Assembly: GCF_000026545.1 (NCBI RefSeq)
Contig: NC_011601.1
Strand: one strand, 5' to 3'
Length of the DNA: 64,000 nt
Origin: Escherichia coli O127:H6 str. E2348/69
Lineage (GTDB): Bacteria; Pseudomonadota; Gammaproteobacteria; Enterobacterales; Enterobacteriaceae
The stretch's first letter is position 1; every line of letters begins with the position of its first letter. Below are positions 1 to 29,281 of the stretch, in pieces. The notes under the pieces were generated by a model. It saw nothing but the letters and a program-made list of their open reading frames with translations. It was not told the DNA's origin and made no database searches. The translations under genes and the position numbers were made by a program.

Positions 1-929
1 TCGCCTGTTTCTCGGCATTTTTCTTCTGCATCTCCAGTTCATAAAGCTTCGCTTTCATCTGCTTCATGGCCTGGTCTTTGTTCTTGTGCTGGGAACGGTC
101 GTTCTGGCACTGAGTCACGATCCCGGTCGGGATGTGAGTAATACGCACCGCAGATTCGGTACGGTTAACGTGCTGACCGCCCGCGCCGGATGCGCGATAA
201 ACGTCGATGCGCAGATCCGCCGGATTGATTTCGATATCGATATCATCATCAACTTCCGGGTAAACAAACGCGGAGCTGAACGACGTGTGGCGACGACCGC
301 CGGAGTCAAACGGGCTCTTACGCACCAGGCGGTGAACGCCGGTTTCTGTACGCAGCCAGCCATAAGCGTAATCGCCGGAGATTTTGATCGTCACGGATTT
401 AATACCCGCCACTTCACCTTCCGACTCTTCGATGATTTCAGTTTTGAAACCACGCGATTCAGCCCAGCGCAGATACATACGCTCAAGCATGCTCGCCCAG
501 TCCTGTGCTTCCGTACCGCCAGACCCCGCCTGAATATCGAGGTAGCAGTCGGCGCTGTCATATTCGCCAGAGAACATACGGCGGAACTCAAGCTGCGCCA
601 GTTTTTCTTCCAGGGCGTCGAGTTCAGCAACGGCTTCGTTAAAGGTTTCTTCGTCGTCAGCTTCTACAGCCAGTTCCAGCAGACCAGAAACATCTTCCAG
701 CCCCTGTTTCATTTGGTCGAGGGTGTCGACAACGGCTTCGAGGGAGGAACGCTCTTTACCCAGCGCCTGTGCACGTTCGGGTTCGTTCCAGACATCCGGC
801 TGTTCCAGCTCGGCGTTTACTTCTTCCAGACGCTCTTTCTTGGCGTCATAGTCAAAGATACCCCCTAAGAACGTCGGAGCGTTCCGTGAGGTCCTGAATG
901 CGATTATTTACCGGATTAATTTCAAACAT
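1..929 (-). CDS. prfB: peptide chain release factor 2, partial (3' end lies beyond window start); two-frame gene with programmed +1 frameshift
   Basis: Reverse-complement translation from ATG at 929 gives [25 protein letters not shown] then in-frame TGA; the +1 frame continues with RF2 motifs ([39 protein letters not shown]). Not in the ORF track because it runs off the window edge. Confidence 0.9.
852..866 (-). other. prfB: programmed +1 ribosomal frameshift site (CTT TGA C) with upstream Shine-Dalgarno-like AGGGGG
   Basis: Minus-strand sequence AGGGGGTATCTTTGAC read directly; classic RF2 autoregulatory site. Confidence 0.85.
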
Positions 930-1019
930 GGTCTGATTTCTTTTATTGAGCTAGTCAAAATGCGGTGATAAGAGCGGGATTGTACCCAATCCACGCTCTT
1001 TTTTATAGAGAAGATGACG

Positions 1020-2753
1020 CTAAATTGGCCAGATATTGTCGATGATAATTTGCAGGCTGCGGTTGCCGCGAAACTCGTTGATATCGAGCTTGTAAGCCAG
1101 TTGCACTTCGCGCACACCGTTATCCGGCCAGAGGGCGGTATCGACATTAAAAGCAATCCCGTCCAGCAGCGGACCGCCGCCGACCGGTTCGACCATCACC
1201 TTCAAATGACGCTCGCCCACCAGCCGCTGTTGCAACAGACGGAAATGACCGTCAAACAACGGTTCCGGGAACATTTGTCCCCACGGGCCAGCATCACGCA
1301 ACAGCTGCGCCACTTCCATGGTCATCTCTGCCGCACTTAATGGGCCGTCTGATACCACTTCCCCTTGCAATAAAGAAGGATCTAACCACTCGGTAACCAG
1401 TTCGCCAAAGCGTTGCTGAAAGAGTTCGAATTTATCCTCTTCCAGCGACAATCCTGCCGCCATCGCATGGCCGCCAAACTTGAGCATCATGCCGGGGTAA
1501 AGCGTGTCTAGCCGCTCCAGCGCATCGCGCATATGCAGCCCCTGAATGGAGCGACCGGAACCTTTCAGCGTACCGTCGCCCGCAGGCGCAAAGGCGATAA
1601 CCGGACGGTGAAAACGCTCTTTGATACGCGATGCCAGAATGCCAACAACGCCCTGATGCCATTCAGGGTGATACATTGCCAGCCCACCTGGCAGCGTGTC
1701 GCGGCTACGTTCCAGCTTCTCGCACAGAGTGAGCGCTTCAACCTGCATTCCCTGTTCGATCTCTTTACGTGTTTGGTTTAGTGCATCGAGTTCATTCGCC
1801 AGCACACGCGCTTCGCCAATGTTGTCACACAACAACAGCGCCACGCCAACGGACATATCGTCCAGTCGCCCGGCAGCATTGAGACGTGGCCCCAGCGCAA
1901 AACCTAAATCGCTGGCGGCGAGTTTTTGTGGATCGCGATTGGCCACTTCCAGCAGCGCTTTAATCCCCGGACGGCACTTTCCGGCACGGATGCGACTCAT
2001 CCCCTGCCAGGTCAGAATGCGATTATTAGCGTCCAGCGGCACGACGTCCGCCACTGTCCCCAACGCGACCAGATCCAGCAGTTCTGCCAGATTAGGAATT
2101 GCGATGCCGCGCTCATCAAACCAGCCCTGATCGCGCAAAAAGGTGCGCAGCGCCAGCATCAGATAAAACGCCACACCCACGCCTGCCAGTGATTTCGACG
2201 GGAAATTACAGTCGCGCAAGTTAGGGTTAATGATCGCTTCCGCTGCGGGTAATGTGTCGCCTGGCAAATGGTGATCGGTAACAATAACCGGAATGCCCAA
2301 CGAACGAGCGTGTTCAACCCCCGCATGGGAGGAAATACCGTTATCCACCGTGACAATTAACTGCGCGCCACGGGCATGAGCCTGATCGACTACTTCCGGG
2401 CTTAAGCCGTAACCGTCTTCGAAACGGTTTGGAACCAGGTAGTCGATATTGCTGCAACCAAGCGAGCGCATCGCCAGCACGCTTAGAGCCGTGCTGGTGG
2501 CACCGTCGGCGTCGAAATCACCGACCACAATAATCCGCGTTCCTTCGCGAAAAGCGTTGTAAAGGATCTCAACGGCCTTTTCGACGCCGCTCAGTTGCTG
2601 CCAGGGCAGCATGCCTTTAACACTGCGTTCCAGTTCCTGCGCGCTACGCACACCCCGGCTGGCATATAAACGGCGCAGCAAGGGAGGCAATTCAGCGGGC
2701 AAGTCGGCCGTTTCATCGACTTCACGGCGACGAAGTTGTATCTGTTGTTTCAC
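1020..2753 (-). CDS. recJ: single-stranded-DNA-specific exonuclease RecJ
   Basis: 577-aa ORF with DHH/DHHA1 phosphoesterase motifs; synteny with prfB and dsbC. Confidence 0.93.
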   Translation of the reverse strand: MKQQIQLRRREVDETADLPAELPPLLRRLYASRGVRSAQELERSVKGMLPWQQLSGVEKAVEILYNAFREGTRIIVVGDFDADGATSTALSVLAMRSLGCSNIDYLVPNRFEDGYGLSPEVVDQAHARGAQLIVTVDNGISSHAGVEHARSLGIPVIVTDHHLPGDTLPAAEAIINPNLRDCNFPSKSLAGVGVAFYLMLALRTFLRDQGWFDERGIAIPNLAELLDLVALGTVADVVPLDANNRILTWQGMSRIRAGKCRPGIKALLEVANRDPQKLAASDLGFALGPRLNAAGRLDDMSVGVALLLCDNIGEARVLANELDALNQTRKEIEQGMQVEALTLCEKLERSRDTLPGGLAMYHPEWHQGVVGILASRIKERFHRPVIAFAPAGDGTLKGSGRSIQGLHMRDALERLDTLYPGMMLKFGGHAMAAGLSLEEDKFELFQQRFGELVTEWLDPSLLQGEVVSDGPLSAAEMTMEVAQLLRDAGPWGQMFPEPLFDGHFRLLQQRLVGERHLKVMVEPVGGGPLLDGIAFNVDTALWPDNGVREVQLAYKLDINEFRGNRSLQIIIDNIWPI

Positions 2754-2758
2754 GCGAA

Positions 2759-3469
2759 TTATTTACCGCTGGTCATTTTTTGGTGTTCGTCGAGGAATTC
2801 TTTCATGTCTTTCGGCGGCTGGTAACCTGGAACAAGTGTGCCATTGCTCAGCACAACTGCCGGAGTACCGCTAACGCCAAGCTGGACGCCAAGTGCGTAA
2901 TGGTCGGCAATATCCACGTCGCAGCTGGCTGGTGCGACGCTTTTACCTGCCATCACATCATCAAAGGCTTTGTTTTTATCTTTCGCGCACCAGATAGCTT
3001 TCATTTCTTTCTCTGCATCGCTGTCCAGCCCCTGGCGCGGGAAAGCAAGATAACGCACGGTGATCCCCAGCGCGTTATAGTCTGCCATTTGCTCATGCAG
3101 TTTGTGGCAGTAACCACAGGTAATATCAGTAAACACGGTGATGACGTGTTTTTCCTGCGGCGCTTTATAAACGATCATCTCTTTTTCAAGCGCATTCAAC
3201 TGCTTTAACAGCATCTTATTGGTGACATTGACCGGAGCCGTGCCACTAACGTCATACATTGGCCCCTGAATGATATGTTTACCATCATCGGTGATGTACA
3301 ACACACCGCTGTTAGTCAGAACTGTCTTCATGCCAGCTACGGGCGCGGGCTGAATATCGCTGCTTTTGATGCCCATTTTGGCTAACGTTTGTTGAATTGC
3401 CGCGTCATCAGCCTGAGCAAAGCCTGAAAACGCCGCTAACAAAGTAAACAACATAAAACCTTTCTTCAT
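2759..3469 (-). CDS. dsbC: periplasmic disulfide isomerase DsbC
   Basis: 236-aa ORF with signal peptide and thioredoxin-like CGYC active site. Confidence 0.93.
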   Translation of the reverse strand: MKKGFMLFTLLAAFSGFAQADDAAIQQTLAKMGIKSSDIQPAPVAGMKTVLTNSGVLYITDDGKHIIQGPMYDVSGTAPVNVTNKMLLKQLNALEKEMIVYKAPQEKHVITVFTDITCGYCHKLHEQMADYNALGITVRYLAFPRQGLDSDAEKEMKAIWCAKDKNKAFDDVMAGKSVAPASCDVDIADHYALGVQLGVSGTPAVVLSNGTLVPGYQPPKDMKEFLDEHQKMTSGK

Positions 3470-3493
3470 AAATCTTCCCGTTCTTTTCAGACA

Positions 3494-4390
3494 TCACGCC
3501 CGCGGGTGATGCTGTTGATGAAGTTGCCGCAGACGCTCGGTAGCGACATGCGTATAAATTTGCGTGGTGGAGAGATCACTGTGGCCCAGTAGCATCTGCA
3601 CCACGCGTAAATCCGCACCATGATTTAATAAGTGAGTGGCAAAAGCGTGACGCAACACATGCGGTGACAGCTTTTCGCTGTCGATACCCGCCAGCACGGC
3701 ATAATGTTTAATGCGGTGCCAGAAGGTCTGTCGCGTCATCTGCTGCGCACGCTGGCTGGGAAACAACACGTCAATTGACACACCATTCAACAGCCACGGA
3801 CGCCCATGTTCCAGATAGGTTTCCAGCCAGTAAACCGCCTCTTCACCTAACGGCACCAGGCGCTCTTTGTTGCCTTTACCAATGACCCGCACTACGCCCT
3901 GACGCAGGCTGATATCACTCATTGTCAGCCCGACCAGTTCAGAGACACGCAGTCCGGTAGCATACAACACTTCAAGCATGGCTTTATCGCGTAGCTCCAG
4001 TGGCTGATCAATTAATGGTGCCTGTAATAAACGTTCGACCTGCGCTTCGCTTAAATCTTTTGGCAAACGCTGGGGCAATTTCGGTGAAGCGAGATGCGCA
4101 CTGGGATCATCTTCACGAAACTTTTCGCGATAAAGATACTGGAACAATCGGCGCACTGCACTCAGCAAACGCGCTGAGCTGGTGGCTTTATACCCGCCCT
4201 CCAGCCGTTCTGCCAGTAATGCCTGCAAATCGTCACTTTGCGCCGTCGCCAGCGTCAACCCGCGGTGATGCAACCACTCCACCATCATTGACAGATCGCG
4301 ACGGTAAGCGTTCAACGTATTTTCAGCCAGATTTTTTTCCAGCCACAGAGCATCAAGAAACTGCTCGATGCGTGCCAGATCCTGTTTCAC
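3494..4390 (-). CDS. xerD: site-specific tyrosine recombinase XerD
   Basis: 298-aa ORF with C-terminal recombinase motifs (HxLRHAFATHLL, LGHSDLSTTQIYTH); housekeeping chromosome-dimer resolvase, not a mobile-element integrase. Confidence 0.93.
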   Translation of the reverse strand: MKQDLARIEQFLDALWLEKNLAENTLNAYRRDLSMMVEWLHHRGLTLATAQSDDLQALLAERLEGGYKATSSARLLSAVRRLFQYLYREKFREDDPSAHLASPKLPQRLPKDLSEAQVERLLQAPLIDQPLELRDKAMLEVLYATGLRVSELVGLTMSDISLRQGVVRVIGKGNKERLVPLGEEAVYWLETYLEHGRPWLLNGVSIDVLFPSQRAQQMTRQTFWHRIKHYAVLAGIDSEKLSPHVLRHAFATHLLNHGADLRVVQMLLGHSDLSTTQIYTHVATERLRQLHQQHHPRA

Positions 4391-4501
4391 TTGCGCCCCT
4401 TATGGTCACTCATTTGATCCATTATGCCTTATTGTGCCGTGACTAAAGCGATTCTGATACACTAGCCGCAAAAGCCACAGCAGAATCGAGAAGCTTACGT
4501 T

Positions 4502-5023
4502 ATGAATATGGGTCTTTTTTACGGTTCCAGCACCTGTTACACCGAAATGGCGGCAGAAAAAATCCGCGATATTATCGGCCCAGAACTGGTAACCTTACAT
4601 AACCTCAAGGACGACTCCCCGAAATTAATGGAGCAGTACGATGTGCTCATTCTGGGTATCCCGACCTGGGATTTTGGCGAAATCCAGGAAGACTGGGAAG
4701 CCGTCTGGGATCAGCTCGACGACCTGAACCTCGAAGGTAAAATTGTTGCGCTGTATGGGCTTGGCGATCAACTGGGATACGGCGAGTGGTTCCTCGATGC
4801 GCTCGGTATGCTGCATGACAAACTCTCGACCAAAGGCGTGAAGTTCGTCGGCTACTGGCCAACGGAAGGATATGAATTTACCAGCCCGAAACCGGTGATT
4901 GCTGACGGGCAACTGTTCGTGGGTCTGGCGCTGGATGAAACTAACCAGTATGACCTTAGCGACGAGCGTATTCAGAGCTGGTGCGAGCAAATCCTCAACG
5001 AAATGGCAGAGCATTACGCCTGA
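4502..5023 (+). CDS. fldB: flavodoxin 2
   Basis: 173-aa ORF with flavodoxin fold signature ([17 protein letters not shown]). Confidence 0.9.
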
Positions 5024-5062
5024 TGTCACTGACGGCTTAGCACATATGCTTTGCCGTCATCT

Positions 5063-5729
<667 letters not shown>

Positions 5730-5959
5730 TCACGAAAATCCAGTACCCGGCTATTGTAACGTGTTTTTCGACTTCTTTTACGGGAATATCAGTAAACACA
5801 ATCGCGATCGCGAAATTAATTCACAACAATTCAAGGGCTTCATTTTTTTGGAAGTCGCCTCGCAGAAGGCACAGATCGCGTAGTGAAAGCACTTGCATTG
5901 CCTCATAGCTCTTTTACCATTAGTTATTAATACGCCGTTAAGCAACTCAGGACTCTATT

Positions 5960-6940
5960 ATGGCTTTTACACCTTTTCCTCCCCGTCAGCCTACGGCTTC
6001 TGCCCGTTTGCCACTGACGCTGATGACGCTTGATGACTGGGCGCTTGCCACTATTACTGGCGCGGACAGCGAAAAATATATGCAAGGCCAGGTGACAGCA
6101 GATGTCAGCCAGATGACTGAAGATCAGCACCTGCTCGCCGCCCATTGCGACGCCAAAGGTAAAATGTGGAGCAATTTACGTCTGTTCCGCGACGGCGATG
6201 GCTTTGCATGGATTGAACGGCGCAGCGTGCGTGAACCGCAGCTGACTGAACTGAAAAAATATGCGGTGTTCTCTAAAGTGACCATCGCGCCAGACGACGA
6301 GCGTGTGCTGCTTGGTGTTGCCGGTTTTCAGGCGCGCGCCGCGTTGGCAAATCTCTTTAGTGAACTACCTTCGAGAGAAAAACAGGTAGTCAAAGAAGGC
6401 GCGACCACGTTGCTATGGTTTGAACACCCGGCAGAACGTTTCCTGATCGTAATCGATGAAGCTACTGCCAATATGCTGACCGATAAACTGCGCGGTGAAG
6501 CGGAACTGAACAATAGCCAACAGTGGCTGGCATTAAACATTGAAGCGGGTTTTCCGGTGATTGATGCCGCCAACAGCGGGCAGTTTATCCCCCAGGCGAC
6601 CAACCTCCAGGCGCTGGGCGGTATCAGCTTTAAGAAAGGCTGCTATACCGGACAAGAGATGGTGGCGCGAGCAAAATTCCGTGGTGCCAACAAACGCGCG
6701 CTCTGGTTGCTGAAGGGTAGCGCCAGCCGACTGCCGGAAGCTGGTGAAGACTTAGAGCTGAAAATGGGCGAGAACTGGCGTCGTACCGGTACGGTGCTGG
6801 CTGCGGTCAAACTGGAAGATGGTCAGGTTGTGGTGCAGGTTGTCATGAATAACGATATGGAACCGGACAGCATCTTCCGCGTGCGTGACGATGCGAATAC
6901 ATTGCGTATCGAGCCACTGCCATATTCGCTGGAAGAGTAA
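5960..6940 (+). CDS. ygfZ: tRNA-modifying folate-binding protein YgfZ
   Basis: 326-aa ORF with GcvT-like fold and conserved C-terminal KGCYTGQE motif. Confidence 0.9.
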
Positions 6941-7016
6941 ATCTCTGTATCGCATCAGGCATTTATCGCCTGATGCGACACTGGTGTGTCTTTTCGGGCC
7001 TACAAAGGCACGCCAA

Positions 7017-7679
<663 letters not shown>

Positions 7680-7839
7680 TTACTCCGGAAAAACGTACAC
7701 GCACATGTATACCTCTCCAGCGTAACTGAGAATAGTTCCAGTGAACACCTGTTAGCTAAAATAAATTCTGATTTGAGATTAATCTCCGAAAAATCATGAA
7801 ATTAAATGCGAAATTTCAACTAACAGGCGTGAGTTCAAT

Positions 7840-8151
7840 TTAAAGGCATTTAAATTCAATCACATAAAACTGTGTCTGGTCGGGATAGATGTCGGCAATG
7901 ACCTTTTTCAGTTCAGTCAGGGTCATATTTTCCTGCTTTGCATGTTTTTCCGTCAGCGTATCCAGTGTTACGGTTGAGGTTGCGGTGACTTCAATCGTGC
8001 AAAAATAACCGTCATCTTCAAACCGTCCGACACGAAGCACATCACCCGTTTTGAAGTGCGATTCAGACTCGTCGCGGATGGTGATGGTTTTACGCCCAGC
8101 CAGAATGTCATCCTGGAAACGTTGAAAAAAAGTGATGTCGTTTGGCTGCAT
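7840..8151 (-). CDS. yqfB: ASCH-domain protein YqfB
   Basis: 103-aa ORF; ASCH/PUA-like fold; position conserved next to bglA. Confidence 0.8.
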
Positions 8152-8168
8152 GGTAATATTTCCTGTAA

Positions 8169-9629
<1,461 letters not shown>

Positions 9630-9750
9630 TTAGCCGATGTGCCTGATGTGCTCCGCTCATCAGGCCTGGCACTCTTTTAATATATTGAGCTCGCAATATT
9701 TTATATTACGCCTCAGCCGACACACACAAAGCGCACTTTATTAACAAGCG

Positions 9751-9774
9751 AAAAAGGCGCCGAAGCGCCTTTAT
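9751..9774. terminator. bidirectional rho-independent terminator between convergent bglA and gcvP
   Basis: AAAAAGGCGCCGAAGCGCCTTTAT: GC hairpin flanked by an A-tract and a T-tract. Confidence 0.7.
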
Positions 9775-9794
9775 AAGATAGTCGAATCAGTAAA

Positions 9795-12668
9795 TTACTG
9801 GTATTCGCTAATCGGTACGCAGGAGCAGAACAGGTTACGGTCGCCGTAAACATCATCCAGACGTTTCACGGTCGGCCAGTATTTGTCTGCCACACCTGCC
9901 GGGAATACTGCAACTTCACGGCTGTACGGATGCGCCCACTCGGCGACCAGTTCGCTTTGAATGTGCGGCGCATTCACCAGCGGGTTATCTTCCAGCGGCC
10001 AGACACCGGCTTTCACCTGGTCAATTTCTGCGCGGATAGCCAGCATCGCATCGATAAAGCGATCCAGTTCCACTTTGCTTTCAGATTCAGTCGGTTCAAC
10101 CATCAGCGTACCCGCCACCGGGAACGACATGGTCGGCGCGTGGAAACCGTAGTCGATCAGGCGCTTGGCAATATCCAGCTCGCTGATGCCGGTTTCTTCT
10201 TTCAGCGGGCGAATATCGAGAATACATTCGTGCGCCACGCGACCGTCGCGACCGGTATACAGCACCGGGAAGGCATCCTGCAGACGGCTGGCAATATAGT
10301 TGGCGTTAAGAATTGCCACCTGGCTTGCTTTTTTCAGCCCTTCTGCGCCCATCATGCGGATGTACATCCAGCTGATTGGCAGGATAGAGGCACTACCGAA
10401 CGGTGCCGCAGAAACCGCGCCCTGACGGGTTAACATGCCTTCGATTTGCACCACGCTATGACCCGGTACAAACGGAGCCAGATGCGCTTTCACACCGATC
10501 GGTCCCATACCCGGACCACCACCGCCATGCGGAATGCAGAAAGTTTTATGCAGGTTAAGGTGGGAAACGTCCGCACCAATAAAGCCCGGCGAGGTGATGC
10601 CAACCTGAGCGTTCATGTTCGCGCCATCAAGGTAAACCTGACCGCCGAACTGATGCACGACTTCACACACTTCACGGATCGTTTCTTCATACACGCCGTG
10701 GGTAGAAGGATAGGTCACCATGATACAGGAGAGGTTATCGCCCGCCTGTTCCGCTTTCGCGCGCAGATCAGTCAGATCGATGTTGCCATTTTTATCACAC
10801 GCCACAACCACCACCTGCATTCCTGCCATATGCGCGGAAGCCGGGTTAGTGCCGTGCGCAGAAGCCGGGATCAGGCAGATATCGCGATGCCCTTCGTTGC
10901 GGCTTTCATGATAATGACGAATCGCCAGCAGGCCCGCGTATTCGCCCTGTGCGCCAGAGTTCGGCTGCATACAAACGGCGTCGTAACCGGTCAGTTTCAC
11001 CAGCCAGTCAGCCAGCTGCGCGATCATCTGCTGATAACCTTCAGCCTGTTCTGGCGGGCAGAACGGGTGCAGTTCGGCAAATTCCGGCCAGGTGATCGGG
11101 ATCATCTCGGCGGCGGCGTTCAGTTTCATGGTGCAGGAACCCAGCGGGATCATCGCCTGATTCAGCGCCAGATCTTTACGCTCCAGCGAGTGCATATAGC
11201 GCATCATTTCGGTTTCGCTGTGGTAGCGATTAAACACCGGATGGGTGAGGATTTCGTCGTCGCGCAGCATCGCAGCCTGAATAGAGCGACTGTCGTGAGC
11301 CACGTCTTTGTCCAGTGTGTCGATGTCCAGCCCGTGGTTATCGCCCAACAGCACGCTGAAAAGCTGCATCACGTTTTCGCGCGTGGTTGTTTCATCAAGG
11401 GTGATCCCAACCGCGTTCAGAATATCGCTACGCAGGTTGATTTCAGCCGCTTCGGCACGCGCCAGCACGCCCGCTTTGTCGGCCACTTCCACACACAAAG
11501 TATCGAAATAGTGCGCATGGCGCAGCTTCAGACCTTTTTGTTGCAGGCCCGCCGCCAGGATATCGGTCAGACGGTGGATGCGGTTAGCGATACGTTTCAG
11601 GCCAACCGGACCGTGATAAACGGCATACAGGCTGGCAATGTTTGCCAGCAGTACCTGGGAAGTACAAATGTTGGAGTTCGCTTTCTCACGACGAATATGT
11701 TGCTCGCGAGTCTGCATCGCCATGCGCAGAGCGGTGTTGCCAGCTGCATCTTTCGATACACCGATAATACGGCCCGGCATTGAGCGTTTGTATTCATCTT
11801 TCGCCGCAAAGAATGCCGCGTGTGGGCCACCATAGCCCATCGGCACGCCGAAGCGTTGCGCCGAACCAAAAACAATATCCGCGCCCTGTTTACCTGGCGC
11901 AGTTAACAGCACCAGCGCCATAATATCGGCGGCAACGCTGACCACAATTTTGCGTGATTTCAGTTCGCTAATAAGCGCAGTGTAGTCGTGAATTTCACCA
12001 GTAGTGCCGACCTGCTGTAACAGCACGCCGAAGACGTCCTGATGGTCGAGCACTTTTTGCGCGTCATCGACAATCACTTCAAAACCAAAGGTTTCGGCAC
12101 GAGTACGGACCACATCCAGCGTTTGCGGATGAACGTCAGAAGCAACAAAGAAGCGGTTGGCATTTTTCAGTTTGCTGACGCGTTTCGCCATCGCCATTGC
12201 TTCGGCGGCAGCGGTGGCTTCGTCAAGAAGAGAAGCAGAGGCCATATCCAGCCCGGTTAAATCCAGCGTTACCTGCTGGAAGTTGAGCAGTGCTTCAAGG
12301 CGGCCCTGGGAGACTTCAGGTTGATACGGAGTATACGCGGTATACCAGCCCGGATTTTCCAGCATGTTACGCAGGATAACCGGCGGTAGCTGCACGGCGG
12401 TGTAACCCATGCCGATGTAAGACGTGAAGCGTTTATTGCGACTGGCAATAGCCTTGAGTTCTGCCAGTGCGGCGTATTCGGTCGCCGGTGCGCCAACCTG
12501 CGGTGGTGTCGCAAGCTGAATATCTTTCGGCACAATCTGGCCGGTCAGCGCGTTTAACGATTGTGCACCAACGGCATTCAGCATTTCTTGCTGTTGCGCG
12601 GCGTCCGGTCCGATATGGCGTTCAATAAAAGCGCCGCTGTTTTCAAGCTGGCTTAACGTCTGTGTCAT
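9795..12668 (-). CDS. gcvP: glycine dehydrogenase (decarboxylating), glycine cleavage P protein
   Basis: 957-aa ORF with PLP-dependent GcvP motifs; gcvT-gcvH-gcvP operon order. Confidence 0.95.
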
Positions 12669-12786
12669 GAGCGATGGTTCCTGAAACGTGCAGTGAATTG
12701 TGAACCTCTCTCCTTACGAAGAGAGTGAGGGTGAGACGTAAATGTTCCTCACCCTGATCCTCTCCCGCAGAAGAGGAATAAAGCCG

Positions 12787-13176
12787 TTACTCGTCTTCTA
12801 ACAATGCTTCGTATGCGGTTGCATCCAGCAGTGATTCCAGTTCGCTTTCATCGCTGGCTTTGATTTTGAAAATCCAGCCGCCTGCATACGGTTCGCTGTT
12901 CACCAGTTCCGGGGAATCGCTCAGTGCATCGTTTACCGCCACGATTTCACCGCTTACTGGCGCATAAATGTCTGACGCCGCTTTTACCGATTCGGCAACC
13001 GCGCAGTCATCGCCCGCGCTAACCGTTGCGCCCACTTCCGGTAGGTCAACAAACACCATATCGCCTAACAGCTCCTGAGCGTGTTCGGTGATGCCAACGG
13101 TGTAAGTGCCGTAGGCTTCTTTACGCAGCCATTCGTGTTCTTTGCTGTATTTCAGTTCTGCTGGTACGTTGCTCAT
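12787..13176 (-). CDS. gcvH: glycine cleavage system H protein (lipoyl carrier)
   Basis: 129 aa from the second Met; lipoyl-lysine motif region ([18 protein letters not shown]). Confidence 0.93.
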
Positions 13177-13199
13177 CAATCAATCTCCAAAAAAGTAAA

Positions 13200-14294
13200 T
13201 CACGCGACGGCTTTGCCGTTACGCACAAAAACAGGTTTCGTCACTTTAACCGGCATTTCACGGTTGCGAATTTGCACAATCGCCGTTTCACCAATACCTT
13301 CCGGCACGCGCGCCAGCGCAATGCTATAACCCAGCGTTGGGGAGAAAGTACCGCTGGTGATAATGCCTTCATGCTGGTTGCCCTGCGCATCAGTAAAACG
13401 TACCGGCAGTTCATTACGCAGCACGCCTTTTTCGGTCATCACCAGACCAACCAGTTTTTCTGTGCCATGTTCACGCTGCGCTTCCAGAGCTTCACGACCG
13501 ATAAAGTCACGATCTGCCGGTTCCCAGGCGATAGTCCAGCCCATATTGGCGGCTAAAGGAGAAATAGTTTCGTCCATCTCCTGGCTATACAAATTCATGC
13601 CCGCTTCCAGACGCAGCGTGTCACGCGCGCCCAAGCCACATGGCTTAACGCCAGCTTCCACCAGCGCGCGCCAGAAATCGGCCGCTTTTTCATTGGGCAG
13701 CGCAATTTCGTAGCCCGCTTCACCGGTGTAACCGGTGGTTGCAATAAACAGATCGCCCGCCTGCACGCCAAAGAACGGTTTCATCCCTTCCACCGCCTGA
13801 CGCTGGGCGTCATTAAACAGTGTGGCAGCTTTTGCCTGCGCATTCGGCCCTTGTACGGCGATCATGGAAAGGTCATCACGAACAGTAATTTCGATGCCGA
13901 AAGGTTCAGCGTGTTGGGTAATCCAGGAGAGGTCTTTTTCGCGGGTGGCGGAGTTAACAACGAGGCGGAAGAAATCTTCAGTAAAGTAGTAGACGATGAG
14001 ATCATCTATCACACCGCCAGAGGCATTCAACATCCCCGAGTAAAGGGCTTTGCCGCTTTTGGTGAGCTTCGCCACATCGTTCGCCAGCAGATAACGTAGA
14101 AACTCCCGGGTGCGGCTGCCGCGAAGATCGACGATGGTCATATGTGACACATCAAACATTCCGGCATCGGTACGTACCGCATGATGTTCGTCGATTTGCG
14201 AACCGTAATGCAGCGGCATCATCCAGCCGTGGAAATCCACCATGCGAGCGCCGCAAAGCGTGTGTTGTTCGTACAAAGGAGTCTGTTGTGCCAT
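13200..14294 (-). CDS. gcvT: aminomethyltransferase, glycine cleavage T protein
   Basis: Track ORF is extended upstream; Met at 14294 ([11 protein letters not shown]) gives 364 aa. Confidence 0.92.
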
Positions 14295-14741
14295 CTTGTC
14301 CTCATTGAATAAGCGGGGCTGACAACTTTTCCATGGCGAAATTATCACCACGAAACCCAGCATCGGAGCCACTCCCGGTCCCCAACGCAATCGTTCTCTT
14401 TTGCCTGAACTTACCACCGAAACAGACTGTTAACCATAAGGTAAAATTGATCATCACATTAGCTTATGGTTAAAAAATGCAAAAATCGCAACAGAATAAA
14501 AAACCAAAAAACACTCCTTTTTCTATAAAAAGATGATGTAATGAGAAAGTTAATTTGAATAAGACAATATTAAGCGCTAAAAAAATGTCAAAAAACACTA
14601 AATCAAAAACCCATAACATTAGAAAATATAATGCGAAAACGGAGGTTAAATTAGTTTATTTCAAATGAGGAAAATCCCCCGGCGAAAAAACCGGGAGATG
14701 AAAGTGTGATGGGTATCAAATAAACAGCAGAAGAGAAATAT
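14295..14741 (-). promoter_or_regulatory. long AT-rich gcvTHP control region, including a terminator-like hairpin downstream of ubiI
   Basis: About 450 bp noncoding, strongly AT-rich from about 14440 to 14700; hairpin CCCGGCGAAAAAACCGGG near 14676-14700. Individual regulator binding sites not resolved by eye. Confidence 0.4.
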
Positions 14742-15944
14742 TTAACGCAGCCATTCAGGCAAATCGTTTAATCCCATTGCCTGACGAATAAGTTGTGGCT
14801 TAACGCCAGGAAGCGTATCAGCCAGTTTCAGGCCAATATCACGCAGCAATTTTTTCGCCGGATTAGCCCCGGAAAACAGATCGCGGAATCCCTGCATACC
14901 AGCCAGCATCAGCGCCGCGCTGTGCTTGCGGCTACGCTCATAGCGACGCAGGTAAATGTACTGCCCGATGTCTTTACCCTGACGATGCAACCGTTTCAGT
15001 TCAGCAATCAGCTCTGCAGCATCCATAAAGCCGAGATTTACCCCCTGCCCCGCCAGCGGGTGAATGGTATGCGCGGCGTCGCCCACCAACACCAGACGGT
15101 GCGCGGCAAACTGGCGCGCATAACGCCCCGTCAGCGGGAACACCTGACGCTCACTCTCAACCTTGCATAAGCCCAGGCGATTATCAAAAGCGATATTTAA
15201 CGCGCGATTAAATTCGTCTTCCCCTGCCTGCTGCATCCGCTGCGCTTCCTCTGGCGACAGTGACCAGACAATCGAGCAAAGATGCGGATCGCTAAGCGGT
15301 AAAAAGGCCAGAATGCCTTCGCCATGGAAAACCTGCCGCGCCACCGCATCATGCGGTTCTTCCGTGCGAATGGTCGCCACCAGCGCGTGATGCTGATAAT
15401 CCCAGAAAGTCAGCGGAATATCGGCTTTGTTGCGCAACCAGGAATTAGCGCCGTCCGCGCCAATCACCAGACGCGCCGTTAACATGCTGCCATCTTTCAA
15501 CGTCAGGAAGGTTTCATTTTCTCCCCAGGCGACCTGCTGTAATTCTGCGGGGGCCAACAGAGTGATATCTGACGACTGCTGCGCTTTGTTCCACAGCGCG
15601 TAGTGAATCACTGAATTTTCAACGATATGCCCAAGATGGCTATAGCCCATGCTTTGATCGTCAAACGAGATGTGACCAAAACTGTCTTTATCCCACACTT
15701 CCATACCGTGATAGCAACAGGCCCTACGAGAGAGAATGTCCTGCCAGACGCCAAGACGGGTGAGTAATTTTTCGCTGGCGGCATTGATAGCCGAAACGCG
15801 CAGTTGTGGTGGTGCATCCGCCGCCAGAGGTTCCGGTACGCGCTGCTCCAGTACGGCAACGCGTAAGCCGCTACCCTGTAAGCCGCAGGCAACCGCCAGC
15901 CCGACCATGCCGCCGCCAACAATGGCTACATCAACACTTTGCAT
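14742..15944 (-). CDS. ubiI: FAD-dependent ubiquinone biosynthesis hydroxylase UbiI (VisC)
   Basis: 400-aa ORF with N-terminal GGGMVG dinucleotide-binding motif; adjacent paralog ubiH. Confidence 0.9.
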   Translation of the reverse strand: MQSVDVAIVGGGMVGLAVACGLQGSGLRVAVLEQRVPEPLAADAPPQLRVSAINAASEKLLTRLGVWQDILSRRACCYHGMEVWDKDSFGHISFDDQSMGYSHLGHIVENSVIHYALWNKAQQSSDITLLAPAELQQVAWGENETFLTLKDGSMLTARLVIGADGANSWLRNKADIPLTFWDYQHHALVATIRTEEPHDAVARQVFHGEGILAFLPLSDPHLCSIVWSLSPEEAQRMQQAGEDEFNRALNIAFDNRLGLCKVESERQVFPLTGRYARQFAAHRLVLVGDAAHTIHPLAGQGVNLGFMDAAELIAELKRLHRQGKDIGQYIYLRRYERSRKHSAALMLAGMQGFRDLFSGANPAKKLLRDIGLKLADTLPGVKPQLIRQAMGLNDLPEWLR

Positions 15945-15966
15945 TGTTTATTCCTTAAAACCGCCT

Positions 15967-17145
15967 TCAACGCGCCACCCAACCAAGAGTGCGCTGCGCC
16001 AGCACATCGCGTGCCGGGGTAAATAATTCCATCGTCATCAGCCCGATGTTGCGCCCGACAACCAGCGGCGTCCAACGGTTGGCAAAAAGATGAACAAGGC
16101 TGTCCGTGACGCCGATGGTTGCTTCGCGATCGCTCTGTCGACGCTGCTGATAACGGCACAATACGCCGTAATCACCCATGTCTTCTCCGCGTTCCTGCGC
16201 CTGAGTCAGGGTTTCCGCAAGGCTCATGACATCACGCATACCGAGGTTAAATCCTTGCCCGGCGATGGGGTGCAGAGTTTGCGCCGCATTGCCCACCAGC
16301 ACGGTACGATGGGTAATAGGTTTGGCGGCGCGGGTTAACGCCAGCGGATAAGCACTGCGTTTACCGGCGTGAGTAATTTTCCCAAGTCGCCAGCCAAAGG
16401 CCGACTGGAGTTCACGGCAAAACTTCTCGTCGCTCCACGACAGCACCTCTTCGCGCCGTTCCAGTGGATGACACCAGACCAGCGAACAGCGTCCGTCAGA
16501 CATCGGCAACATCGCCAGCGGGCCATGTTGCGTAAAGCGTTCAAAAGCGCGCCCTTCATGCGCAACGGAAGTCGCAACGTTGGCAATCACAGCCAGTTGT
16601 TCGTAAGGCTCCTGCTGCCAGTCAACGCCGCACACGGTGGCTAACGCTGAATGGGTGCCATCAGCGGCTACCAGCACGCAGCCCGTCAGCGTCTCGCCAC
16701 TCTCCAGCGTCACTTCAACGTGACTCTGAGTACGGGCAACGTTAGCCACGCGATCAGGACAATGCAGCGTTACGCCAGGTGCTTTGCGCAGCAATGCAAA
16801 CAGCCGTTGCCCGACATTATGCAATTCGACAACCTGCCCCAGCGCCGCCAGTTGGTAATCTTCTGCGGCGAGGGTGACGAATCCGGCATGACCACGATCG
16901 CTGACATGCACGGTAGTGATGGCGGTTGCGCAATCAGCCAGAGATTGCCAGACGCCGATGCGCGCCAGTTGCTGACAGGTACCCACCGCCAGCGCTATCG
17001 CTCGTCCATCAAAGCCCGGATGAGCATGTGACTCTGGCGCAGTCGCTTCAATCAAATGTACCGGCAGCGCCCCGTGACTTAACCGGGAAATAGCCAGCGC
17101 CAGCGTCGCGCCCGCCATGCCGCCACCGACGATGATTACGCTCAT
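15967..17145 (-). CDS. ubiH: 2-octaprenyl-6-methoxyphenol hydroxylase
   Basis: 392-aa ORF with N-terminal GGGMAG FAD-binding motif; 4-bp overlap with pepP. Confidence 0.9.
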   Translation of the reverse strand: MSVIIVGGGMAGATLALAISRLSHGALPVHLIEATAPESHAHPGFDGRAIALAVGTCQQLARIGVWQSLADCATAITTVHVSDRGHAGFVTLAAEDYQLAALGQVVELHNVGQRLFALLRKAPGVTLHCPDRVANVARTQSHVEVTLESGETLTGCVLVAADGTHSALATVCGVDWQQEPYEQLAVIANVATSVAHEGRAFERFTQHGPLAMLPMSDGRCSLVWCHPLERREEVLSWSDEKFCRELQSAFGWRLGKITHAGKRSAYPLALTRAAKPITHRTVLVGNAAQTLHPIAGQGFNLGMRDVMSLAETLTQAQERGEDMGDYGVLCRYQQRRQSDREATIGVTDSLVHLFANRWTPLVVGRNIGLMTMELFTPARDVLAQRTLGWVAR

Positions 17146-18467
17146 TGCTTTCTCGCAGCAGCCATCAACGCTTCGATTTCTTCCGGCTTTTTCACCACGC
17201 TGGCGGTGAGGTTTTCGTTGCCGGTTTCGGTAATCACAATGTCGTCTTCAATACGAATGCCGATACCGCGATATTGTTCTGGCACATCCGCATCCGGCGC
17301 GATATACAGACCAGGCTCTACGGTCAGTACCATCCCCGGTTCCAGAATGCGCGAGCGATCCTGACCATAAACGCCAACGTCATGGACATCCAGTCCTAAC
17401 CAGTGGCTAAGGCCATGCATAAAGAAAGGACGATGGGCGTTCTGAGCGATCAGTTCATCAACATCACCCTTCAGGATGCCGAGTTTTACCAGGCCGCTAA
17501 CCATGATACGCACCACTTCACCAGTGACTTCCTGCATGGAAGTTCCCGGACGATACAGGCGCAGGCTGGTTTCAAGAGACTCCAGCACAATGTCATAGAT
17601 TTCACGCTGAGCCTGAGTGAATTTGCCGTTGACCGGGAAGGTGCGGGTAATGTCGCCAGCGTAACCTTTGTATTCACAACCCGCGTCAATCAACACCAGA
17701 TCACCGTCACGCAGTTCACACTCGTTTTCGGTGTAGTGCAAAATGCAGCCGTTTTCACCGCTGCCAACAATGGTGTTATAGGAAGGGTAACGCGCACCGT
17801 GGCGGTTAAACTCGTGGTGAATTTCGCCTTCCAGATGGTACTCGAACATCCCCGGACGGCATTTTTCCATCGCCCGGGTATGCGCCAGTGCGGTGATTTC
17901 ACCCGCGCGGCGAAGTACGGCAATCTCTTCTGGTGATTTGAACAGGCGCATTTCATGAACAACAGGACGCCAGTCGATCATCGTAGCCGGGGCAGTGAGA
18001 TTCTGTCGCGAGCCTTTACGCAGCTTTTCCAGCGCGCTGTTCACGATTTCATCAGCATAGGTATATTCGCCCTGAGCGTGATAAACCACATCCAGACCAT
18101 TAAGCAGTTGATAAAGTTGCTGATTGATTTCGCTGAATGCCAGTGCGCGGTCAACGCCCAGTTTCTCTGGCGCGGCATCCTGGCCTAAGCGACGACCAAA
18201 CCAGATCTCTGCCGTCAGGTCGCGAACGCGGTTAAACAAAACGCTGTGGTTATGAGTGTCGTCGCTTTTAATCAGCACCAGCACCGCTTCCGGTTCGTTA
18301 AAGCCGGTGAAGTACCAGAAGTCACTGTTCTGACGATAGGGGTATTCGCTGTCGGCGCTACGTGTTACTTCTGGTGCAGCAAAAATCAGCGCGGCGCTGC
18401 CGGGTTGCATTTGCTCCACCAGGGCCTGACGGCGACGCTGAAACTCTTGCCGGGATATCTCACTCAT
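17142..18467 (-). CDS. pepP: Xaa-Pro aminopeptidase (aminopeptidase P II)
   Basis: Track ORF extended; Met at 18467 (MSEISRQEF) gives 441 aa; M24 metallopeptidase motifs. Confidence 0.9.
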   Translation of the reverse strand: MSEISRQEFQRRRQALVEQMQPGSAALIFAAPEVTRSADSEYPYRQNSDFWYFTGFNEPEAVLVLIKSDDTHNHSVLFNRVRDLTAEIWFGRRLGQDAAPEKLGVDRALAFSEINQQLYQLLNGLDVVYHAQGEYTYADEIVNSALEKLRKGSRQNLTAPATMIDWRPVVHEMRLFKSPEEIAVLRRAGEITALAHTRAMEKCRPGMFEYHLEGEIHHEFNRHGARYPSYNTIVGSGENGCILHYTENECELRDGDLVLIDAGCEYKGYAGDITRTFPVNGKFTQAQREIYDIVLESLETSLRLYRPGTSMQEVTGEVVRIMVSGLVKLGILKGDVDELIAQNAHRPFFMHGLSHWLGLDVHDVGVYGQDRSRILEPGMVLTVEPGLYIAPDADVPEQYRGIGIRIEDDIVITETGNENLTASVVKKPEEIEALMAAARKQ

Positions 18468-18492
18468 AACACTCTCCTTACGTTTTTTGTTT

Positions 18493-19071
18493 TTAGTGTA
18501 GAGTCGGTTTTTGTACTTCTGGCGCGGTCGGTTGCGGATGAGTAAAGGTGTCGTGGCATAACAGCGCGGCAACACGAACGTATTCGATGATCTCTTCAAG
18601 CGACATTTCAAGCTCTTCCTGATCTTCGTCTTCGTCGTAGCCCAGCTGCGCGATGTTACGCAGATCGTCGATGGCTTCACCGGTTTCTCCGGTCACTTTG
18701 TCCAGCTTCGGTTGCGTAACGCCAAGACCAAGCAGGAAGTGATTGACCCAACCTGCCAGCGCATCAGCCCGATCGAAAACGCTGACATCATCGCCATCAG
18801 GCAGATAAAGCTGAAAAAGGAAGCCGTCATCCTGCAGGGCATCGCTGGTGGCAGAGTGCATTTTACGCAGTGCCTGTGCCAGCTCATGACCGAAAGCCAT
18901 GCCTTCGTTCGTCAGGTCGTGAAGTAGCGGCAGCCATGAGCTGTCATCGTTACCGCCACATATCATCCCGCTGATTAAACCATGCATCTCAGCAGGGGTC
19001 AGACCCGTCCCTTGTTGGTTCAGATACTGGTTCATTTCGTTGTAACCAGGCATTTCGTTCTGTATAGACAT
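18493..19071 (-). CDS. ygfB: UPF0149 family protein YgfB
   Basis: 192 aa from [10 protein letters not shown] (alternative Met two codons upstream at 19077); acidic C-terminal region. Confidence 0.85.
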
Positions 19072-19172
19072 AAGCATTCGTCGTCAAAGGGAGGAATATT
19101 CATGATATGCTACCACTTTGGGCCCTGGTGGACCAGAAAAGGGCTTGTCTCTTCTCATCAGGGTAGCTATAG

Positions 19173-19568
<396 letters not shown>

Positions 19569-19609
19569 CACTTTTCGGTTTACTGTGGTAGAGTAACCGT
19601 GAAGACAAA

Positions 19610-19793
19610 ATTTCTCTGAGATGTTCGCAAGCGGGCCAGTCCCCTGAGCCGATATTTCATACCACAAGAATGTGGCGCTCCGCGGTTGGTGAGCATGCTC
19701 GGTCCGTCCGAGAAGCCTTAAAACTGCGACGACACATTCACCTTGAACCAAGGGTTCAAGGGTTACAGCCTGCGGCGGCATCTCGGAGATTCC
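19610..19793 (+). ncRNA. ssrS: 6S RNA
   Basis: Sequence ATTTCTCTGAGATGTTCGCAAGCGGGCCAGTCCCCTGAGCC...GGAGATTCCC read directly; matches the 6S RNA primary sequence I recall; zapA-ssrS-fau context. Confidence 0.85.
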
Positions 19794-19813
19794 CTTCTTA
19801 TCTGGCACCAGCC

Positions 19814-20416
19814 ATGACGCAACTACCAGAACTCTCACTGACATTATCCCGACAAGAAATCCGCAAAATGATTCGGCAACGTCGTCGTGCGTTAACGCCG
19901 GAACAACAGCAGGAAATGGGTCAACAAGCCGCTACCCGGATGATGACTTATCCCCCGGTGGTGATGGCACATACGGTCGCTGTATTCCTCTCTTTTGATG
20001 GCGAACTCGACACCCTGCCACTCATAGAACAACTCTGGCGCGCCGGTAAGCGCGTATATCTTCCAGTTTTGCATCCCGTCAGTGCCGGTAATTTGCTGTT
20101 CCTGAATTACCATCCGCAAAGCGAACTGGTGATGAACAGGTTGAAGATCCATGAGCCAAAACTGGATGTGCGTGACGTGCTACCCCTTTCCCGATTAGAC
20201 GTGTTGATCACACCGCTGGTCGCCTTTGATGAGTACGGTCAGCGCCTGGGAATGGGCGGTGGTTTTTATGATCGGACCTTACAAAACTGGCAGCACTATA
20301 AAATGCAACCGGTGGGTTATGCGCATGATTGTCAGTTAGTGGAAAAACTCCCCGTTGAAGAGTGGGATATCCCTCTTCCTGCGGTGGTTACACCGTCGAA
20401 AGTCTGGGAGTGGTGA
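19814..20416 (+). CDS. fau: 5-formyltetrahydrofolate cyclo-ligase (YgfA/Fau)
   Basis: Track ORF begins inside ssrS; Met at 19814 (MTQLPELSL) gives 200 aa; the alternative Met at 19868 (MIRQRRR) would give 182 aa. Confidence 0.8.
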   Translation: MTQLPELSLTLSRQEIRKMIRQRRRALTPEQQQEMGQQAATRMMTYPPVVMAHTVAVFLSFDGELDTLPLIEQLWRAGKRVYLPVLHPVSAGNLLFLNYHPQSELVMNRLKIHEPKLDVRDVLPLSRLDVLITPLVAFDEYGQRLGMGGGFYDRTLQNWQHYKMQPVGYAHDCQLVEKLPVEEWDIPLPAVVTPSKVWEW

Positions 20417-20469
20417 GGGCGACACACCTGCATCGCCCTGATTGACATCGTTGATTCTTTAACCTAATT

Positions 20470-20616
20470 TAGTGAGTAAGGGTAAGGGAGGATGACTCCT
20501 CCCCTGAGACTGACTGTTAATAAGCTGGGAAACTTATGAGTAACAGTACAATCAGTATGATGACAAGTCGCATCATAACCCTTCTCCTTCAAGCCCTCGC
20601 TTCGGTGAGGGCTTTA
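20470..20616 (+). ncRNA. sibC: Sib-family antitoxin sRNA (SibC-like), antisense to ibsC
   Basis: Fully overlaps ibsC on the opposite strand; GGGTAAGGGAGG...CCTCCCCTGAGACTGACTG motif; ends in hairpin AGCCCTCGCTTCGGTGAGGGCTTT. Boundaries approximate. Confidence 0.5.
20517..20576 (-). CDS. ibsC: Ibs-family type I toxin, 19-aa hydrophobic peptide
   Basis: Minus-strand ATGATGCGACTTGTCATCATACTGATTGTACTGTTACTCATAAGTTTCCCAGCTTATTAA translates to MMRLVIILIVLLLISFPAY*. Confidence 0.6.
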   Translation of the reverse strand: MMRLVIILIVLLLISFPAY

Positions 20617-20751
20617 CCGTTACAGCCCCATGCTGCCCTGCCATCGTAAATCCCCATTAAATAAACACAACGCATTGATCTGACTTTGATTTATTTTCTG
20701 GAGCAGGCTCGCAAAGTAGAATGCGCAATGCGGCAACGGTGTGGAGAAGGG

Positions 20752-20784
20752 ATAAAAAAACGGGCAAGTCAGTGACCTGCCCGT
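20752..20784 (-). terminator. rho-independent terminator of serA
   Basis: Minus-strand hairpin CGGGCAGGTCACTGACTTGCCCG followed by TTTTTTT, 20 bp downstream of the serA stop. Confidence 0.75.
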
Positions 20785-20804
20785 TGATTTTCAGAGAAGG
20801 GGAT

Positions 20805-22037
20805 TTAGTACAGCAGACGGGCGCGAATGGTACCCGGAATAGCTTTCATTGCCTGCAGCGCTTTTTCGGCAACGTCTTCGTCGGCTTCAATATCAATAAC
20901 TACATAACCCATCTGGGCGGAAGTTTGCAGATATTGCGCGGCGATGTTGACGCCCTGCTCGGCAAAAATTTTGTTGAGCGCAGTCAGCACACCCGGACGG
21001 TTTTCGTGGATGTGCATCAGACGACGACCACCGTGCAGTGGCAGCGAGACTTCCGGGAAGTTCACCGCAGAGAGCGTTGAGCCATTGTCAGAATACTTGA
21101 TCAATTTACCCGCAACTTCCAGGCCGATATTCTCCTGCGCTTCCTGAGTCGAACCGCCAATGTGTGGCGTCAGAAGGACATTGTCGAATTCACACAGCGG
21201 AGAGGTAAATGGATCGCTGTTGGTCGCCGGTTCCGTCGGGAATACGTCGATTGCCGCCCCCGCCAGATGTTTGCTCGCCAGCGCGTCGCACAGCGCTGGA
21301 ATATCCACCACAGTACCGCGCGAAGCATTAATCAGCAGCGAGCCGGGTTTCATTAGCGAAATCTCTTTCGTGCCCATCATATTTTTGGTGGACGGATTCT
21401 CTGGTACATGCAGACTCACCACATCGCTCATATTCAGCAGGTCAGAAAGATGCTGTACCTGAGTGGCGTTGCCCAGCGGCAGTTTGTTTTCAATATCATA
21501 AAAGTAAACATACATTCCCAGCGATTCAGCCAGAATGCCCAATTGCGTACCAATATGACCATAGCCGATGATACCCAGCTTTTTGCCGCGCGCTTCAAAA
21601 GAACCCGCCGCCAGTTTGTTCCACACGCCACGGTGCGCTTTAGCATTGGCTTCCGGCACGCCGCGCAATAGCAGCAGCAGTTCGCCAATCACCAGCTCCG
21701 CAACAGAGCGCGTATTTGAGAACGGTGCGTTAAATACCGGGATCCCGCGCTTTGCCGCCGCATCCAGATCAACCTGGTTTGTTCCGATACAGAAACAGCC
21801 AATAGCGACCAGTTTTTCTGCGGCGTTGATCACGTCTTCAGTCAGATGGGTACGGGATCGCAGGCCGATGAAGTGGGCATCGCGGATGGATTCTTTTAAT
21901 TGTTCATCATCCAGCGCGCCTTTGTGAAATTCGATGTTGGTGTAACCAGCTGCACGAAGGCTTTCCAGCGCCTTTTGGTGCACGCCTTCTACCAGCAGAA
22001 ACTTAATCTTGTCTTTCTCCAGCGATACCTTTGCCAT
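20805..22037 (-). CDS. serA: D-3-phosphoglycerate dehydrogenase
   Basis: 410-aa ORF with NAD-binding GxGxxG (GIIGYGHIG) and C-terminal ACT domain. Confidence 0.95.
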   Translation of the reverse strand: MAKVSLEKDKIKFLLVEGVHQKALESLRAAGYTNIEFHKGALDDEQLKESIRDAHFIGLRSRTHLTEDVINAAEKLVAIGCFCIGTNQVDLDAAAKRGIPVFNAPFSNTRSVAELVIGELLLLLRGVPEANAKAHRGVWNKLAAGSFEARGKKLGIIGYGHIGTQLGILAESLGMYVYFYDIENKLPLGNATQVQHLSDLLNMSDVVSLHVPENPSTKNMMGTKEISLMKPGSLLINASRGTVVDIPALCDALASKHLAGAAIDVFPTEPATNSDPFTSPLCEFDNVLLTPHIGGSTQEAQENIGLEVAGKLIKYSDNGSTLSAVNFPEVSLPLHGGRRLMHIHENRPGVLTALNKIFAEQGVNIAAQYLQTSAQMGYVVIDIEADEDVAEKALQAMKAIPGTIRARLLY

Positions 22038-22292
22038 TTACCCAATCCTGTCTTTTGAAATGTTGTGTGCGGATTTGCATCCGCCTTTCAACATATCAAA
22101 AAATAATATTGCGGCAATATGAACGTTTGCGTCGCGATGTTGAGGAAATATCACGCAAAAGTATTTCTTGGATGAATATGCTGGTTTAGAAGATTTATTT
22201 AGAGCAATCGACAATTGCCAGGTAAAAACGTGACACATGTCACCAAATTTAATGAAGAGAATTTTTTTAACGGGGGAGGTTCCCCCGTCAGA

Positions 22293-22952
22293 TCATTTCA
22301 CAATAGTTTTGACACCGTCAGGTGTGCCAATCAGCGCAACGTCCGCGCCACGGTTAGCAAACAAACCAACAGTCACCACGCCAGGAATCGCATTTATGGC
22401 GTTTTCCATCGCTATCGGGTCAAGGATTTCCATGCCGTGGACGTCGAGGATCACGTTGCCGTTATCGGTCACTACGCCCTGACGGTATTCCGGACGACCG
22501 CCCAGTTTCACCAGCTGGCGCGCCACTGCACTACGTGCCATCGGGATAACTTCTACTGGCAGCGGGAATTTGCCCAGAATATCAACCTGCTTGGAAGCGT
22601 CTGCAATACAGATAAATTTTTCCGCAACCGAAGCAATGATTTTTTCACGGGTCAGCGCCGCGCCGCCGCCTTTGATCATTTGCATGTGGCCGTTGATTTC
22701 ATCTGCGCCATCAACGTAGATGCCAAGGCTGTCGACTTCGTTGAGATCAAAAACGTGAATGCCGAGGCTTTTCAGTTTTTCAGTGGAAGCATCTGAACTG
22801 GAAACGGCCCCTTCAATCTGGCCTTTCATTGTACCGAGTGCGTCAATAAAGTGTGCGGCGGTGGAACCTGTACCTACACCAACAATGGTGCCGGGCTGAA
22901 CATACTGAAGTGCCGCCCATCCTACTGCTTTTTTCAATTCATCCTGCGTCAT
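22293..22952 (-). CDS. rpiA: ribose-5-phosphate isomerase A
   Basis: Track ORF extended; Met at 22952 (MTQDELKK) gives 219 aa; RpiA motifs (GVGTGST). Confidence 0.92.
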
Positions 22953-22987
22953 GATCGTTTCGCCTGTGGTATGAAATTTCACACGCA

Positions 22988-23265
22988 TTATACTCTAAAT
23001 AATTCGAGTTGCAGGAAGGCGACAAGAGAGTGACAAATTCGTCAGGAACGAATTTGCCCAGCCGCAGGCTGGCCTTCGGTGAGAGACATGGATGTCTCTC
23101 ATTAATCCCCAGGAGCTTACAGAAGTAAGTGACTGGGGTGAGCGACAAATCCGCATGGAGCGGATTTGAACGCTGCTTGCAGCGGCCCCGTAAGGGGTGA
23201 GGCCCATGGATGGGCCGAATAACCCGCAGACGCAGCACATGCAACTTGAAGTATGACGAGTATAT
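22988..23265. repeat. ERIC (IRU) element, expanded form with two internal hairpin insertions
   Basis: Core matches the inverted copy at 30578-30702 (…AAGTAAGTGACTGGGGTGAGCGA…, terminal TATACTC/GAGTATA); two extra blocks at about 23033-23102 and 23145-23223. Confidence 0.8.
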
Positions 23266-23279
23266 ACAAAAAAAGCGAT

Positions 23280-23558
23280 TCAGACCCCGTTGGCAAGCCG
23301 GGTGGTTAACTCATCCATAAAATATCGCGCAATGGCGGGCATCCCCTTTCGCCCCGCAAATAAAGCATACAACGGTCTGGGGATGCTGCTCCACGGTGCG
23401 AACAGGCGCACCAGTTCCCCGTTAGCAAGCCCCTGTTTACAGGCAAACTGAGGCAATAACGCCACACCATTCAACACAACCAGGGCGCGAACTCGCTGAG
23501 CGAAATGCATTAGCGCAAATCCCTGATCTTTTAAGCTGCGCGTTAACCACTGATACAA
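23280..23558 (-). pseudogene. yqfE: LysR-family regulator fragment (C-terminal effector domain only)
   Basis: 92-aa ORF matching only the C-terminal part of LysR-type regulators; no N-terminal HTH region. Confidence 0.6.
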
Positions 23559-23650
23559 ATGTTACCCGCCAACGACTTCGGTATATGCAACCCGACACAA
23601 AATTGTGTCATAGTGCAGGAAAAAGCATTTACCAGGAGCAGACAACAGCA

Positions 23651-24544
23651 ATGAAACGCCCGGACTACAGAACATTACAGGCACTGGATGCGGTGATACG
23701 TGAACGAGGATTTGAGCGCGCGGCACAAAAGCTGTGCATTACACAATCAGCCGTCTCACAGCGCATTAAGCAACTGGAAAATATGTTCGGGCAGCCGCTG
23801 TTAGTGCGTACCGTACCGCCGCGCCCGACGGAACAAGGGCAAAAACTGTTGGCGCTACTACGCCAGGTGGAGCTGCTGGAAGAAGAGTGGCTGGGCGATG
23901 AACAAACCGGTTCGACTCCGCTGCTGCTTTCACTGGCGGTCAACGCCGACAGTCTGGCGACGTGGTTGCTTCCGGCGCTGGCTCCTGTGTTGGCTGATTC
24001 GCCTATCCGCCTCAACTTGCAGGTAGAAGATGAAACCCGCACTCAGGAACGTCTGCGCCGCGGCGAAGTGGTCGGCGCGGTGAGTATTCAACATCAGGCG
24101 CTGCCGAGTTGTCTTGTCGATAAGCTCGGTGCGCTCGACTATCTGTTCGTCAGCTCAAAACCGTTTGCCGAAAAATATTTCCCTAACGGCGTAACGCGTT
24201 CGGCATTATTGAAAGCACCTGTGGTCGCCTTTGACCATCTTGACGATATGCACCAAGCCTTTTTGCAGCAAAACTTCGATCTGCCCCCAGGCAGCGTACC
24301 GTGCCATATCGTTAATTCTTCAGAAGCGTTCGTACAACTTGCTCGCCAGGGCACCACCTGCTGTATGATCCCGCACCTGCAAATCGAGAAAGAACTGGCC
24401 AGCGGTGAACTGATTGACTTAACGCCGGGGCTATTTCAACGCCGGATGCTCTACTGGCATCGCTTTGCTCCTGAAAGCCGCATGATGCGTAAAGTCACTG
24501 ATGCGTTGCTCGATTATGGCCACAAAGTCCTTCGTCAGGATTAA
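23651..24544 (+). CDS. argP: LysR-type transcriptional regulator ArgP (IciA)
   Basis: Met at 23651 ([15 protein letters not shown]) gives 297 aa; N-terminal HTH; divergent from the yqfE fragment. Confidence 0.92.

Positions 24545-28420: not shown

Positions 28421-29281
<861 letters not shown>

Follow-up and report, generated by a model that had tools for sequence, protein, structure and literature searches.

The window analysed here, a 64,000-nt stretch of E. coli DNA, opens within prfB, the gene for release factor RF2, which lies on the minus strand and crosses the window start. Codons 1-309 of its 365, or 929 of the annotated 1099 nt, are inside the window; the 170 nt beyond it, which encode residues 310-365 (56 codons) and the stop, were seen in enteropathogenic E. 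coli O127:H6 strain E2348/69. Over the 1019 bases that separate the window edge from the recJ stop, the DNA matches that genome with 100% identity; there, xerD, dsbC, and recJ are upstream of prfB and lysS, also outside the window, is downstream. In the RefSeq record of E2348/69, the prfB CDS is joined from two pieces and carries the note 'programmed frameshift', and the joining gives a 365-aa RF2. The identity extends over the whole window (1..64000), which is 100% identical to positions 853057-917056 of E2348/69 NZ_CP059840.2 in reverse orientation; the next-best genomes among the matches listed are approximately 98.9% identical to the window.

The spacer between recJ and prfB is 90 nt long and holds a GC-rich hairpin at 970..1000. 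The sense strand of both genes has an A-run here, and the T-run of the hairpin is antisense to them, on the plus strand; a bidirectional or antisense terminator is one possible role of this hairpin. A consensus scan of 700..1300 for promoters and terminators returned this one hairpin and no sigma-70-like promoter upstream of prfB. We also scanned the whole window at the Rfam gathering thresholds, and no family was assigned at the prfB site, a result that says little about the site itself.

The beginning of prfB contains a +1 frameshift site, which is on the minus strand and intact (Table 1). The sequence-only reading had described an RF2 gene split over two frames at CTT TGA C and preceded by AGGGGG, and this is what we saw: the minus strand from 866 to 851 reads AGGGGG TAT CTT TGA C, in exact agreement with the published consensus. 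As described for prfB, that consensus consists of an SD-like element close to AGGGGG in sequence, a slippery CTTT that begins after three more nucleotides, the stop codon TGA, and then a C (PMC12421855), and each of these elements was found in place. The stop codon of the upstream frame is TGA (854..852) at codon 26, as in the published description (PMC12421855); CTT stands directly before it, which creates CTTT; C at 851 stands right after it, which creates TGAC; and AGGGGG (866..861) with its TAT spacer is three nucleotides upstream of CTTT. The range given earlier for the site, 852-866, covers AGGGGG-TAT-CTT-TGA, leaves the C at 851 one base outside, and came with no strand. On the plus strand, 852..866 reads GTCAAAGATACCCCC. 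The complete 16-mer, AGGGGGTATCTTTGAC, occurs a single time in the 64-kb window (minus strand, 866..851); even with two mismatches permitted, chance alone would give only approximately 0.02 matches.

Table 1. Elements of the prfB frameshift site and the two reading frames that it connects (window positions)
Feature	Position	Strand	Remarks
prfB ORF0	855..929	-	ATG 929..927 to Leu25 CTT 857..855; 25 sense codons, frame 0
Internal Shine-Dalgarno-like AGGGGG	861..866	-	3 nt (TAT 860..858) upstream of CTT; matches the PMC12421855 consensus
Slippery CTTT	854..857	-	Leu25 CTT 857..855 plus T (854) of TGA; sequence seen directly, role from PMC12421855
RF2-specific in-frame TGA (854..852) followed by C (851)	851..854	-	Weak-termination context, rule from PMC12421855
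prfB +1 frame	1..853	-	Asp26 GAC 853..851 to residue 309; ends at the window edge; contains SPF 205-207, Ala246 (193..191), GGQ 250-252

Beyond this point, 284 codons of the +1 frame, from GAC (853..851) to window position 1, can be read without a stop. This frame has no stop after codon 7, whereas frame 0 meets 19 more stops beyond codon 26. The prediction that a naive ORF caller would break the gene held as well, in that the mechanical ORF list of the window has nothing but a 25-aa fragment at prfB.

We then joined Leu25 to Asp26; the product is 309 residues long and has both the stop-codon recognition tripeptide SPF (205-207) and the catalytic motif GGQ (250-252). Against the NCBIfam model TIGR00020 (prfB), this product scores 439.2 bits, above the cutoff of 370 despite the 56 missing C-terminal residues, and the RF1 models stay below their cutoffs (prfA, 275.6 vs. 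a cutoff of 423). Pfam finds the PCRF and RF-1 domains on it. By these scores and by the presence of both SPF and GGQ, the joined product is a class I release factor of the RF2 type. Residues 1-309 align without gaps and nearly identically to the solved E. coli RF2 (1gqe, E = 6e-204), and the alignment is unbroken over the 25/26 junction. The upstream frame holds the RF2 N-terminus, as it should if the two frames belong to one gene, since residues 1-25 are identical to those of 1gqe, and the downstream frame holds the GGQ region (GGQ at 250, SPF at 205). A single +1 shift therefore gives one continuous RF2 frame, to residue 309 in the window and to 365 aa plus a stop in the joined E2348/69 CDS; the earlier expectation of a full-length RF2 is borne out in the identical reference, and within the window the gene is cut by the edge.

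Next, we asked how well the AGGGGG region could pair with the anti-SD sequence of the ribosome, using the well-established canonical 16S tail, since the window has no 16S gene. In the 1019 nt of sense strand, this region is the strongest predicted anti-SD binder, at -10.7 kcal/mol vs. a mean of -1.0 (sd 2.3), and in 20 kb of the same strand only 4 of approximately 20,000 positions are predicted to bind equally or more strongly. Such strong predicted binding is also what a genuine initiation SD would show, and one could read the downstream frame as starting independently at an internal start codon with no frameshift at all. We give this reading almost no weight. In the +1 frame, the first codons after AGGGGG are GAC TAT GAC, and there is therefore no ATG, GTG, or TTG at initiation distance in that frame; the sole ATG just downstream (848..846) is out of frame with it. 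In addition, residues 1-25 are contiguous with residue 26 onward in solved RF2 chains, and frameshifting at prfB has been demonstrated experimentally (PMC12421855). Internal initiation fails because an in-frame start codon at initiation distance is lacking and RF2 chains are continuous from residue 1.

The locus was then compared across E. coli. Of 5426 complete genomes, 5425 have it in a single copy. When 60 bases with the site at their centre were used as the query, 5422 of the 5426 gave matches, of which 997 are identical and the others are 95-99% identical. We also aligned five sequences, those of the window, E2348/69, K-12 MG1655, and two more strains. Variation is confined to two of the 230 alignment columns (Leu14, CTC/CTA; Tyr27, TAT/TAC); both changes are synonymous and both fall outside the frameshift motif, which is invariant in all five sequences. 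Each of the four database records retrieved has prfB annotated with a 'programmed frameshift'. On a wider scale, a prfB survey of 12,753 bacterial genomes, which covers conservation across phyla, recorded the SD-like/CTTT/TGA/C arrangement in 64% (Prince et al., 2025, PMC12421855).

These data bear on a second reading, in which a genuine frameshift mutation, or else an error in sequencing, has split prfB and the gene is a pseudogene here. The 25-aa fragment, which is all that a mechanical ORF caller gives, is what one would expect of such a gene, but all E. coli sequences that we examined have the identical split and motif, and the consensus AGGGGG-N3-CTTTGAC is precisely where the break occurs. 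RF2 is, moreover, essential in E. coli, and there is one place for prfB per genome (single-copy in 5425/5426), with no other copy found there. Given a split common to all of these E. coli sequences, a single-copy locus, and a break that sits exactly on the consensus motif, a mutation or an error is extremely improbable as the origin of the split.

Taken together, the motif, the two frames, the identity of the product, the annotation of identical DNA, and the conservation across E. coli indicate that the site is almost certainly the canonical autoregulatory +1 programmed ribosomal frameshift of E. coli prfB, and none of our observations speaks against it. The sequence-only reading had recognized it as the autoregulatory prfB recoding site, and the TIGR00020 score of the joined product (439 bits vs. 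a cutoff of 370) and the RefSeq 'programmed frameshift' note on identical DNA agree with that view. Frameshifting is not observable from sequence, and published E. coli work is the source for how RF2 and slippage compete and for what SD pairing contributes. RF2 competes with +1 slippage at prfB, and this autoregulation, in which frameshift efficiency varies inversely with the concentration of RF2, is established in E. coli (PMC12421855). On this model, the ribosome would translate 25 codons and then have CUU, paired with tRNA-Leu, in its P site and UGA-C in its A site. RF2 alone decodes UGA, and C as the next base weakens termination there. With ample RF2, termination at UGA-C would free a peptide of 25 residues. 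With little RF2, the ribosome would pause, and AGGGGG, three bases upstream, would base-pair with 16S rRNA at its 3' tail and assist the slip of the P-site tRNA-Leu from CUU to UUU (TTT, 856..854); GAC (Asp26) would be decoded next, and translation after the slip would yield the full-length 365-aa RF2, so that RF2 would control its own synthesis.

The site shares with the E. coli prfB system the gene, the position at codon 26, AGGGGG, the 3-nt spacer, CTTT, TGA, and the following C, as well as the gene order xerD-dsbC-recJ-prfB (lysS is next in the identical reference, outside the window). Craigen and Caskey reportedly gave the first description of the E. coli prfB frameshift in the mid-1980s, and it was surveyed by Baranov et al. 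(2002, as cited in PMC12421855) and by Prince et al. (2025, PMC12421855). Among other bacterial +1 or -1 recoding sites, the -1 frameshift of dnaX also uses an internal SD, together with a heptanucleotide and a downstream stem-loop. The two systems have in common, by established knowledge, that an internal SD-like element modulates frame maintenance. They differ in that dnaX combines a -1 shift at its heptanucleotide with a longer SD spacing and the stem-loop, whereas the prfB site described here would bring about a +1 shift at a stop codon and be autoregulated by its own product.

Compared with K-12, the differences in prfB are allelic only: Tyr27 is TAT here vs. TAC, and residue 246 is Ala here vs. 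Thr. The Tyr27 codon (845..847, minus strand) lies three bases past the motif and is TAT in the window and in E2348/69, and TAC in K-12 and the two other strains. The change is synonymous and without known effect, and the exact 60-mer with TAT is common to only 997 of the 5422 E. coli genomes. Residue 246 of RF2 is encoded by GCA (193..191, minus strand) in the window and by ACG in K-12 MG1655. In published work, Ala246 is given as the canonical RF2 residue outside K-12, and Thr246 as a less active variant specific to K-12 (PMC5373646). One could imagine that TAT at Tyr27 together with the more active Ala246 RF2 measurably alters the frameshift set-point in this lineage; the idea is speculative, and we consider it very unlikely.

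Several other features of the window were recorded along the way. The only families that Rfam placed in the window were 6S RNA (ssrS) at 19610..19793 on the plus strand, a Sib antitoxin RNA at 20442..20592 on the plus strand, which overlaps ibsC, annotated as a type I toxin gene, and the ES036 small RNA at 43127..43169 on the minus strand, just downstream of tkt. A search of the window with ARAGORN gave no tRNA genes. Most of the scpA-meaB-scpB-scpC (methylmalonyl-CoA mutase) operon appears to have been deleted at 24748..26656, where RefSeq annotates partial pseudogene remnants only, namely a mutase fragment (24748-25713) and a truncated srsR (25778-26656); in other E. coli, with scpA, meaB, and scpC present, an 8-kb query over this region extends across 12.4-13.9 kb. 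At 35768..36445 is an ABC transporter ATP-binding gene of an ECF-transporter cluster; the identical reference genome lists it as a pseudogene that contains an internal stop.

The prfB recoding site is already known and is already annotated in the identical reference genome; being canonical, it adds nothing biologically new. Its value is for annotation only: at this point, automated ORF callers break prfB into pieces or cut it short, and a pipeline unaware of recoding could mislabel this essential gene as a pseudogene.
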